Assembly (NCBI GenBank): GCA_039545335.1
Contig: BCIN01000002.1
Location: 496,001-560,000, forward strand
Length of the DNA: 64,000 bases
From: Kondoa subrosea
Lineage: Eukaryota
Direction of reading: 5' to 3'
This document shows, piece by piece, positions 46,403 to 51,297 of this stretch. Positions within the stretch are counted from its first letter, which is position 1; each line of letters starts with the position of its first letter. The position numbers and the translations under genes were made by a program. The notes beneath the pieces are model-generated. The model was given only the letters and a program-made list of their open reading frames with translations, did not search any database and was not told the origin of the DNA.

Positions 46403-46598
46403 AGGACTGGTGTATTGTATGTGGAATGAACGTAATATAGTACATTGACTGGCCACTGCGCGTGAAGCGCAAAGTGAATAAATAATATTGCATCACTCTC
46501 TTTGTTCTGGGTCGTGACTTTGAAGGCTGACCTCTTTCAAACTACAACCATCGTTCGCTTGAGCTCCTCCTGATTGGGCATAGTCGAAAAGAAGAGCA

Positions 46599-48357
46599 AT
46601 GAGCACGTTTGGACAACTTTTTCGAGTCACCACATATGGAGAATCGCATTGCAGTTCAGGTGAGCTTACATAGCTGCTGTTACTCGCGGATTACGCTCAA
46701 GCTGTCATTTTAATATCAATCAGTTGGCTGCATAGTAGACGGATGTCCTCCTGTAAGATGTTTCGTATTACTCTGCTTGTAAAAGGTCTGATACAGTTTG
46801 TATTAGGGCCTGCAAATATCTGAAGCACAGATTCAGAAACAGCTTTCAAGGCGTAGACCTGGTCAATCTGCTCTGACTACACCTGTAAGCTGAAGAACGA
46901 AATTCTTTAATGAGCAGAAGGAGATGCTTATTCTCTTCAATTGTGTGATTAGCGAGATGAAGCGGATCAAGTATCAGTTCAATCAGGTTGCGAATTTGGA
47001 GTAACATTAGGAACACCTATTGGTTTACGAGTCCAGAATAAAGATCAAAGACCTCATGATTATACCGAAACGGATTTATACCCTAGACCTTCTCATGCGG
47101 ATTGGACTTATTTGCTCAAGTATGGTTTGAAAGCTTCTAGTGGAGGTGGAAGAAGTTCAGCTCGTGAAACAATTGGTGTGTCTAGGCCAGTTCATCATGC
47201 GAGACCATGTTTAGAGCAGCTTTTATGGTACACAGGCCGAGTTGCTGCTGGAGCGATAGCAGAGCATTATCTATCTATAACACACAACGTTCAAATCGTC
47301 GCTTTCGTCTCCGGCGTAGGCAAAGTTCATCTACCTACTACTCCTTCAGCTGCCAAGAATCTTTCCAATGGTCATACAACTGGAGCAGACAGTGATGCGG
47401 AAGAGGATATTTCAAGGGAATATATGGATCTACTCAATACTGTCACTAGGGAACAAGTGGACAGTACAACTGTCAGATGTCCGCATGCTGAATCTGCAGA
47501 AAAAATGGAGCAGGTCAGCCGTGGCTTTAGAATCCTGTTCGGGCAGATTTCTGAAGAACTCGAGCCCTGACAGCGTATTCTTCGAGCAAAAGAAGCATCA
47601 GATTCGGTAGGCGGTACTGTCACTTGCGTCATTAGAAACGTCCCAACCGGTTTAGGCGAACCATGTTTCGACAAACTAGAAGCAAAACTAGCTCATGCTA
47701 TGTTATCTATTCCTGCTACAAAAGGTTTCGAAATTGGATCAGGGTTTGGTGGGACGGAGATGAGTGGAAGCAAGCACAATGATCAGTTTGTGAGGAAAGA
47801 AGGTGGTGGATTAGCTACTGCTTCGAACAAGAGTGGAGGTGTTCAAGGAGGTGTGACCAACGGAGAGCATATCTACTTCAGGTGTGTAGCGAAAACAGGG
47901 ATAGTCAACTGTCTGACTTATTTGTTCCGCCATTTACAGAGTTGGCTTCAAACCTCCTGCTACCATTTCTCAAGAACAGTCAACAGCTCAATATGATGGT
48001 ACACCTGGTGTGCTGTCGACAAGAGGAAGAGTACGTGATATACTACACACTGTTCGCTTGACAAGCTGACATTCCTCACAGCATGATCCTTGTGTCGTAC
48101 CTCGAGCAGTACCGATAGTGGAAGCTATGGCAGCACTTGTCATCATGGAGTAAGTACTCAGCTGCTCATTGACCTGTTCTCACTAATGATGTTTCTTCAG
48201 TGCGTTCTTGATTCAGGCTTCTCGATCAGCCTCTGGAGCACTTCTTCCGCCCGTCACGCATCTTCCGCCTTCAATGAGGCTCGAACAGTTGAAGACAGCA
48301 GAAAAGGCAGCACCGAGTGAAAAGGAAGTGCAGTTACCAAGTGAAAAGGATGCTTAA
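46599..48357 (+). CDS. ARO2: Chorismate synthase
   Basis: [88 protein letters not shown]. Confidence 0.96.
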
Positions 48358-48417: not shown

Positions 48418-51297
48418 TCATCTACCAGGAGCTGGTGAATCAATCCATTCTAGGCCTTGGGAGGCAGCAACGAAAGTCCACTACTCAAGCGGTCAGCTTT
48501 ATCAAATTCATCAACGAGTAGATGTAGACCTTGTCCGAAGCTTCTTCGATGCGCTTCTCGACCGATTTACCAGCGCCATGTCCGCTTGAGAGATCCACTC
48601 GTAGCAGAAGGGGATTTGGATTGTCTTTGCATGTGTGTTGTAGTTCAGCAGCTAATTTCAGTGAATGGAGTCTGTGACAAAGTATCAGTTTCAGACTGGA
48701 TCGTGGATACGAGAACCTACGGTACTACTGTGCAGATAGAACAGATGTAAGCTCAGACACAATGTGAGGGACTGTGTTGACTTATCGATCATCATGGTCT
48801 CCGGTCAGTAACATCATCGGTGGATATACTTGCTTCGTGACATTGTGTAAAGGCGAATATCTATATAGCGTTAGTCGAACAGCAACTTGCAAGCGAATAG
48901 CTCACTCGTAAAGGTAGTCGAATTCTTCTGGTTTGTCAGCACAGCCATAATCAGCCGTCCAAGCGCGCCCGATCGTGAATAGATGGAATTTGAGCATATC
49001 CATTCTAGAGCAGCCAAGAAGCACACGCGTAAGCGAACAATCACACTTTTGCTATAAGGGCTTGACATACACGCCGACATCGGCTACAGCTGCTGAGAAG
49101 AGCTCTGGCGCTTGATTAGCGCATGCCGCAACTAGAAGTCCGCCGTTGCTGCCTATATCAGTCTGTCAGGGCTGCAAGGATAATCTTTTGACGTCTTACT
49201 GACCGCCTGAGATTGCAATCTTCCCAGCAATAGACTCTTGCATAAGGTATTTTGCGGCCCATTGGAAGTCGTCAAAGACGTTTTGCTTGCGTTCTAGCAT
49301 TCCGCCTTTATGCCATTCTTCACCGTACTCCGAGCCACCTCTGATATTTGGTACAGCAAGAACAGCGCCAAAGTGCTTGACGAAGGTCATCCAAGCGGGA
49401 GCTGCTGGCTCGTTTGAGCTAGATTCGACGAACGAACGATGAGCTCACAGAAAGCGGGCTCCACATTGACAGCAAAGCCACCGTATCCGTAAAGAATGGC
49501 TGGAGAACTTTTACGCTTCTGACCCTTCTTGTACACCAGGAACATGGGTATCTGGTGATCAGGGAGCGTAAGCAGTTATTGCTCAAAACAGAACAAATCA
49601 CTGACTTGTGTACCATCTTTCGAAGGATAGAAGACCTGTTCTGTTTCAAAGTCCGCAGCATCAATACCAGCGACCGCACTTTCTCTGTACAGTGACAATC
49701 TCTCTGCTTCAGGTTTTTTGAACTGATAGCGAAATGTTTGTCCAGGAGATACGAAATTGCTGAAAGTAAAGAAGAACTGATCATCTTCTCTTCTGCCAGC
49801 AATACCACCAACGGTGCCAATCAAGTCAGGAGCGATCCTTTCTATTCGTTTACCGGTCTTCAGGTCATGTAAGTAGATCTCATCTTTGACATCTTTAGAG
49901 TAGACGAGTAACAGCTTGTCTTCATTGTGAATGCTAGAAGAAGCCAAAACCGCTTGAGAATCTTCGGGAACAAGATCTTTGAAGCCTTCTTCCGGTTTAG
50001 ACAGATCATAGGTGACGATTTTGTCTTTCGGTGCGTTTGCGTTGGTGCGGATGTAAAGCAATGAACTGCCTTCTCCAGCACTATCGATTACCGTGTACTC
50101 GTTGCCCCATTCAGTAACGAGTTCAGTGTACTTCAAGTCTGGACCGATAGATTGATTGCGTAGATCGGCGACTTTGAGTAGATTGCTTCGACCGGTGTCT
50201 TTCGATGTCGTTACAGAGAGGAAAGATCCACTACAGTCATTTTTTTTTAGCTTATTAATGTTTACAGCACAGGAAACGAACTCTTTGGTGACGCTTAGGC
50301 CATACATGTTCGGTGACTTATCGTTATTAGCATCTTCAATGACCATGACATCTTCATCTTGCGATGTTCCCAATCGATGAAAGTAGATCTTCTGATTCAC
50401 GTTAGATTCCGTTTCCCTTTTGCAAGCCATGATTAAGTAAAGCATTACTGTTCTGGAAGCATACTTGACTCACGTTCCAGCTTTATCATCCATTACTGTC
50501 GTCTTGAATCTTCCGTAAAAGAAACCGGAATCATCATGCATCCAAGTGATCCCAGAGAATTTGACATTTCTAATCACATCGGGTAACCGACCTTGATCTT
50601 GACCTTTGGGTTGATTTGGATCATGAGGTGAATCGGTCGATCGAACATAGATGGTAGACCAATCCGATCCTCGAGAAGATGTACCGTAAGCATAGTATTT
50701 GCCTGATTTAGGAAAGGCGGTCGTTGATAATGCTATTGTGCCATCGGTTGAAAGAAGATTTGGATCGAACCATAATTCAGCTTTGTCCGTTGATGCGGAA
50801 TCGAGATCTGATTTAGCGATACGGTAGATAGGTGTTTGTGATTGTAGGCCAGTATTCCAAGAAAAGTAGACACGACCATCACCTTTGATTGAAGGCGCAG
50901 AGAAGCGTGCATAGTCGTAGTTGAGAGTGAGCTCCTTCTTGAACTTCTGTCGTAGATCATCGAAGCGCGAGAGGTAGCTTTCCGTGAATGCTGCTTGTTT
51001 CTTGACGAAAGCCTTTGTTACTTCTGCTTCTGGCTGATGACAATAGATAAGATAACGCGAATATCACCGAGAGCTAGGACTAACATCCTCCAAAGCAGCA
51101 TAGGGGTCAGCTACCGTTACTTCGCCTTGCGCTCGAGACTTGTACACTCGCTTGACGGTATCGTCTCGTGCTATTTGAGGATAGGAAGACTGTGAAGGTT
51201 CCCATGCAGTGGAGGAAGACATTCTAGTAGCTGTCAAGGCAAAAGTGGAAGCAAGAGACAATGATCGAGCGGAAGTTCGAATGACCAAACGGATCAT
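48418..51297 (-). CDS. Prolyl oligopeptidase (S9A)
   Basis: [51 protein letters not shown], catalytic GGSNGG, DHDDRVVPLHS (needs an AT-AC intron), GHGAGK. Confidence 0.93.

Follow-up and report, generated by a model that had tools for sequence, protein, structure and literature searches.

Intron 9 of the prolyl oligopeptidase (POP) gene of Kondoa subrosea is very probably a genuine AT-AC intron that the U2-type spliceosome takes out in the ordinary course of making the active enzyme. We infer splicing at the AT-AC ends from the DNA and from protein homology, and dependence on U1, U2 and U6 from the signals of the intron together with the snRNA content of the genome. The intron is probably a further example of the already known, rare class of AT-AC type II introns and one of several in this genome.

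The POP gene and its ninth intron

The gene occupies 51222..48418 on the minus strand of the window, the 64,000-nucleotide stretch that was analysed, in a genome of 18.9 Mb in 27 contigs. The hand-built model has 12 exons and encodes 742 amino acids with 0 internal stops. Of the 11 introns, ten have GT-AG ends and lengths of 45-66 nt, and the remaining one is a 56-nt AT-AC intron. The parts of the model, with their support, are as follows.

51085..51222, minus strand: exon 1, with the ATG at 51222 (gene model and homologue alignment)
50474..51033, minus strand: exon 2, beta-propeller (Pfam Peptidase_S9_N, E 1.6e-40)
50282..50416, minus strand: exon 3 (gene model; identical introns predicted ab initio)
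49606..50230, minus strand: exon 4, beta-propeller (Pfam Peptidase_S9_N, E 6.5e-28)
49449..49551, minus strand: exon 5 (gene model and ab initio prediction)
49204..49401, minus strand: exon 6, where the catalytic domain begins (Pfam Peptidase_S9, E 1e-12)
49071..49152, minus strand: exon 7, catalytic Ser588 in GGSNGG (gene model and homologues)
48906..49004, minus strand: exon 8 (gene model and spliced profile alignment)
48786..48860, minus strand: exon 9, YSPLHN...DHDD and the first two bases of Arg672, with catalytic Asp670 (matches porcine POP 614-642)
48730..48785, minus strand: intron 9, putative AT-AC intron, 56 nt, phase 2 (sequence, gene model and spliced profile alignment)
48721..48729, minus strand: exon 10, 9-nt microexon AGTAGTACC, the last base of Arg, Val, Val and two bases of Pro (porcine POP)
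48672..48720, minus strand: intron 10, GT-AG (GTAGGT...TCACAG), 49 nt, phase 2 (sequence, gene model and spliced alignment)
48530..48671, minus strand: exon 11, catalytic His706 in GHG (matches porcine POP 647-695)
48418..48480, minus strand: exon 12 through the stop codon (gene model and ab initio prediction)

Pfam matches on exons 2, 4 and 6 are above the cut-off (Peptidase_S9_N or Peptidase_S9), and exons 9 and 11 match Peptidase_S9 below it. The features that define an S9A enzyme, namely the Peptidase_S9_N propeller, the Peptidase_S9 domain and the motifs of the Ser-Asp-His triad, are all present. Known S9A prolyl oligopeptidases (porcine 1qfs/1h2w; fungal 5n4f and 7zaz) likewise combine a propeller with an alpha/beta-hydrolase and carry the Ser, Asp and His motifs in register with ours; against these structures the protein has no unusual feature. 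POP is single copy, the only such gene found in the genome. Its best relatives are Pucciniomycotina proteins (54-57% identity), and in a quick tree of 48 rows it falls among basidiomycetes, outside the sampled Microbotryomycetes and rusts. A predicted plus-strand gene (46598-48357) stops about 60 nt from the POP stop (48418), and the 3′ untranslated regions of the two probably overlap.

Around intron 9 the minus strand reads ...GAT GAT CG, then ATAAGT...GCTTAC...TCTGCAC, then the microexon and the GT-AG intron 10. With both introns removed the product at the junction is DHDDRVVPLHS. The sequence and coordinates first proposed for the two introns (48785-48730 and 48720-48672) and the microexon hold on the DNA. 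The original prediction that the AT-AC intron and microexon together yield DDRVVP also agrees with the reading frame, the spacing in homologues and a spliced aligner. The prediction described the intron as building the catalytic-Asp motif, which is right in that the motif is restored, but exon 9 alone encodes the catalytic Asp, and the codon that the intron interrupts is that of the Arg two residues on.

The protein fixes this junction closely. In porcine POP exactly four residues (643-646, RVVP) lie between the equivalents of exons 9 and 11. We compared 156 homologues, many of them close kin: the spacing from D668 to S678 is 11 residues in 155/155 that reach the motif, the other one being truncated before it. 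The Arg of DDRVVP is present in 154/156, the exception being a degenerate rust paralogue. In the porcine enzyme the Asp is the catalytic Asp641 and the Arg corresponds to Arg643, a residue lining the substrate pocket (PMC8727363). From background frequencies, the chance of an A, a top-five donor pentamer and YAC occurring exactly at the junction fixed by the protein is about 3e-5. Placing the junction one base later (TA...CA) is equally valid and leaves the mRNA unchanged.

Alternative splices at the catalytic-Asp junction

We enumerated donors and acceptors between exons 9 and 11 and found no GT-AG or GC-AG pair that keeps both the reading frame open and the catalytic Asp in the protein. The closest GT donor (48781) retains an in-frame TAA, as had been predicted. 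If intron 9 is retained the protein ends at residue 672. Just beyond the AC two AGs follow, the first two bases on (48728..48729) and the second ending at 48725; both are out of frame with the donor at 48785, and use of either causes a frameshift and loss of the catalytic His. One canonical in-frame route, which the original prediction missed, does exist: exons 9 and 10 are removed within a 234-nt GT-AG intron, and 28 residues including the catalytic Asp are lost.

A spliced aligner with a profile of 121 mostly fungal proteins took the AT-AC intron and microexon unaided, at 1082.5. The GA-AG alternative scored 1053.0 and an AT-AG skip 1049.3, while GT-AC (1016.5) and the canonical-only path (1015.2) both read through the TAA. 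Gene finders that allow only canonical ends were expected to miss the intron, and a canonical-only finder indeed took the 234-nt skip, dropping exons 9 and 10. To finders restricted to GT/GC-AG introns, then, the enzyme looks dead, with 28 residues including the catalytic Asp gone. A finder that allows AT-AC introns, run without homology, kept the 48785 donor; in one training round it chose the AC at 48730, and the following round placed the acceptor at an AT 6 nt upstream.

That AT acceptor belongs to one of two other non-canonical splices, both in frame: AT-AT (48785-48736), giving DHDDRCTVVP, and GA-AG (48786-48728), giving DHDDLVP. The first adds residues and the second removes them, whereas the length of the motif is constant in 155 homologues. 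The GA-AG splice also loses the Arg, as predicted, which in the porcine enzyme lines the pocket (PMC8727363), and it scores 29.5 below AT-AC. We give the two only a slight chance of being the true splice.

An assembly artefact could also produce these ends. Two more G at the donor in the real DNA would make an ordinary GT-AG intron running to the CAG at 48728, with an identical mRNA; no other contiguous indel of two bases restores both a canonical intron and the right protein. Such mimics are permitted by the exon-end and intron-end sequence of 186/2490 predicted introns. No single-base error suffices: among all substitutions, insertions and deletions over 48800-48721, 0 give a canonical intron with the right protein. 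The coding sequence of 2229 nt has no further frameshift. For the artefact to hold, two bases must have been lost at precisely this point of a coding sequence otherwise free of frameshifts, and we therefore consider it improbable. Several other observations speak against it. The three U1 copies that were read are identical to one another, as are both U2 copies; the three other checked AT-AC introns (below) cannot be such mimics, and none is followed by AG; the A that precedes the Val codon is nothing unusual, with CGA accounting for 2158/5216 CGN codons; and an intron at the position that the artefact requires occurs in 0/48 related loci.

The ends might instead be real mutations in a broken or crippled gene, the transcript of which would be mostly retained, mis-spliced or skipped and would yield little active enzyme. 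Rescue of A+1 mutants by C-1 leaves splicing less efficient (PMC1557818), the decoy AG is adjacent, and the in-frame canonical skip is available. POP is, on the other hand, the sole copy in the genome, it keeps all triad motifs at 54-57% identity to its Pucciniomycotina orthologues, and both ends are altered to the one pair known to work, behind a strong donor. A crippled gene is thus hard to credit as well. A GT-AG intron on the antisense strand was considered and rejected, as the plus strand reads GT...AT.

Splicing signals and the choice of spliceosome

Three signals bear on how intron 9 would be recognised.

48780..48785, minus strand: donor ATAAGT, with +2 to +6 complementary to the 5′ end of U1 of the same genome
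48747..48753, minus strand: likely branch site AGCTTAC, with its A 19 nt before the end of the intron (consensus and spacing of branch sites in this genome)
48728..48729, minus strand: decoy AG, two bases past the AC

The donor matches U1 at 5/6 positions and is the sole perfect match at +2 to +6 among the 11 donors of the POP gene. Its score lies at the 85th percentile among 2430 GT donors of the genome, and its pentamer occurs in 8.3% of predicted introns. Relative to the genome consensus, the heptamer at the branch site is a minor variant, CTTAC occurring in 4.6% of introns. A branch distance of -19 is found in 4.8% of the genome's introns (mode 13-14), and the base at -3 is a pyrimidine, C.

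AT-AC ends are typical of minor introns, so that a U12-type intron has to be weighed. The donor agrees with the U12 consensus (PMC5029451; a donor of the ATATCCTT type) at 2/7 of positions +2 to +8. The branch candidates, CCCTCAC (-36) and AGCTTAC (-19), do not correspond to the U12 branch consensus CCTTAAC (PMC3033335). In the genome we found 4 matches to U1 (below the Rfam cut-off; three were read and have a normal 5′ end), 2 to U2 and 1 to U6, with normal pairing motifs in all three snRNAs. The same tool gave 0 matches each to U11, U12, U4atac and U6atac, in a search whose control genomes were also silent. According to the accessible text of two surveys, Basidiomycota have no reported minor introns (PMC10639083, PMC11347168). 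Taken together, these results largely refute a U12-type intron, the least likely of the readings and one with next to no chance of being correct.

A U2-type AT-AC intron, as originally predicted, is by comparison supported by the donor, which is the published consensus of animal U2-type AT-AC introns (ATAAGT; PMC5029451), by the minor snRNAs not having been found, and by other such introns in the genome. We propose that U1, and then U6, would hold the donor through +2 to +6, offsetting the A at +1, as work in yeast and human suggests, and that U2 would pair with the branch site 19 nt from the intron end. At the second step the first A would pair with the last C, in place of the G-G of normal introns. 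This A-C interaction has been described for the first and last intron bases (PMC11585973, PMC1557818), and we suggest that it makes the spliceosome prefer the AC to the AG two bases on. The 9-nt exon would then be retained through removal of the normal intron 10. Failed splicing, by retention or by use of the decoy AG, would give a truncated protein without the catalytic His.

Several natural and engineered introns resemble this one. AT-AC type II introns are known in human SCN4A, SCN5A and TAF2, with 15 in human, 6 in mouse and 3 in fly (Sheth et al. 2006, PMC1557818). Like intron 9 they combine AT-AC ends with an otherwise major-type donor, and ATAAGT is their consensus (PMC5029451). The animal introns are, however, conserved across species and two are proven by experiment, whereas intron 9 is fungal, 56 nt long, not conserved in the loci that we examined and known from DNA. 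In Saccharomyces cerevisiae an AT-AC intron occurs in RPL30, and an engineered intron with A+1 and C-1 was described by Parker and Siliciano 1993 (cited in PMC5029451, PMC11585973). Like the splice proposed here, these AT-AC splices belong to a fungus without a minor spliceosome, which Kondoa subrosea too apparently lacks; they are accounted for by a pairing between the first intron base and the last. The RPL30 AT-AC splice is a 1-2% side product from a non-consensus donor, whereas intron 9 would be the sole route to active protein.

If real, intron 9 is a natural and apparently obligatory addition, from a fungus that apparently lacks a minor spliceosome, to a small class otherwise described mostly in animals. 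With the decoy AG two bases off, it would offer a ready test of whether pairing of the first and last bases alone sets the 3′ splice site. It leaves the current understanding of splicing unchanged. We found no AT-AC intron in a prolyl oligopeptidase gene in a literature search for which most subscription papers were out of reach. A scan of viral contigs gave 0 matches to the intron-specific pattern and 4 weak loci.

AT-AC introns elsewhere and the history of intron 9

At least three more AT-AC introns in the genome were checked by homology, two in FKBP genes and one, found blind, in a GH3 glucosidase. These and further candidates are listed here; the names SEN1-like and ARV1-like are our assumption.

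L077:8027-8075, plus strand: AT-AC intron in an FKBP-glutaredoxin-like fusion gene (glutaredoxin label read from the sequence), beside a 12-nt exon
L080:4098-4153, plus strand: AT-AC intron in FKBP12, beside a 4-nt exon
L088:9110-9162 (G000:C1:1269110-1269162), minus strand: AT-AC intron in a GH3 beta-glucosidase, 53 nt, ATAAGT...TTCAC, found blind
L081:1777-1834, minus strand: AT-AC intron predicted by the gene finder in DNA polymerase delta, 58 nt, ATGAGT...TGCAC
L085:5345-5394, minus strand: AT-AC call in a SEN1-like gene, with a possible 41-nt GT-AG reading, outside the conserved domain
L081:8877-8933, plus strand: AT-AC call in an ARV1-like gene, with a possible GT-AG reading

The FKBP junctions restore motifs of the genome's other FKBPs. 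The GH3 intron splits the Asp codon of SDW, an Asp that we take to be the catalytic nucleophile. Its flanking exons end at 299 and begin at 301 of PDB 7ey1, which by homology makes it real. Two loci found for VMA11 contain no AT-AC intron. The model of a V-ATPase proteolipid gene (L072:1726-1834, minus strand) contains a 4-nt exon and 13 predicted introns; it reads GNAG where GDAG would be expected, perhaps through a misplaced junction.

The self-trained gene finder, which modelled AT-AC and eight decoy splice classes, recovered both FKBP introns, the DNA polymerase delta intron and the POP donor. In 800 kb picked blind it called 2 AT-AC introns among 2178 (GH3 and SEN1-like). The decoy classes in the same 800 kb, at the mildest penalty, gave 1-4 in each of seven and 0 in the eighth, and AT-AC enrichment is thus not shown. 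The rough rate is 0.05-0.09% of introns (95% interval 0.001-0.33%, uncorrected for sensitivity), or about 24-47 among about 51,000 introns genome-wide. This falls between the published figures of 0.019% of splice sites in 130 fungal genomes (PMC7072748) and 0.5% of RNA-seq junctions (69/14305) in Trichoderma longibrachiatum (PMC4324775), and the three have in common a rare class in Dikarya. In their available text those two studies name no POP gene and do not sort AT-AC introns by spliceosome type.

Microexons are ordinary in basidiomycetes. In Coprinopsis cinerea 1165 genes (about 9%) have an exon of ≤15 nt (PMC12230235), and 53/1848 internal exons predicted in our genome are ≤9 nt; the POP microexon differs in having an AT-AC intron on one side and a GT-AG intron on the other. 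An exon of ≤12 nt flanks 3/5 of the AT-AC introns examined, compared with 162/2178 introns (7.4%; within-gene p 0.045), in a biased set of which 1/5 was found blind. One could read the AT-AC ends as a lock: the mismatched ends would force the active-site exons in, because skipping the microexon needs AT...AG and skipping exon 9 alone needs GT...AC. Four of the five AT-AC introns were not picked blindly, the blind find has no adjacent microexon, and joint skipping of exons 9 and 10 is still canonical. We therefore hold it doubtful that, jointly, the ends act as a lock, AT-AC introns are kept preferentially beside microexons, and intron 9 may record the birth of an AT-AC intron.

A metagenome scan returned 60 loci, of which 12 were discarded as chance matches after reading their translations; the 3′ part was mapped in the other 48, none a close relative of the window gene. 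In these 48 loci we found 0 with an AT-AC intron, 0 with any intron at the position of intron 9 and 0 with intron 10, and since intron 10 is absent the microexon is lineage-specific in this sample. The original prediction had raised a control point of splicing efficiency. This is unsupported, the intron being absent in 48/48 related loci and the RNA across the junction having no special fold (z -0.01). Intron 9 is probably lineage-specific and tolerated rather than selected as a switch.

In four of the 48 loci (three distinct; Sporobolomyces clade) the same Arg codon holds a GT-AG intron, placed one base upstream of intron 9; at two further sites the introns of these loci coincide in position with those of the POP gene. 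A GT-AG intron lies in the His codon in 33 Agaricomycete-like loci and one codon earlier in 3 more; of the remaining loci, 2 aligned elsewhere, 1 is truncated and 5 lack an intron in the region. Intron 9 may have arisen by a one-base slide from the Sporobolomyces GT-AG intron or by a one-step loss of two G from a GT-AG intron, the latter with the mRNA unchanged. The evidence for a slide from a Sporobolomyces-like intron is suggestive only: the chance of one pair of introns one base apart is 0.085, and that of two pairs within two bases is 0.011. The second near pair is formed by intron 11 (48529-48481, minus strand), which has a weak donor (GTCTAC, 2/6 to U1) and is located two bases away from where a Sporobolomyces intron sits. 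Across Basidiomycota three intron positions fall within 10 nt of the DHDDR codons (loci L012, L025, L037 and L048 vs Agaricomycete-like loci such as L011 and L013), and two of the three, 9 nt apart, follow an identical four exon bases.
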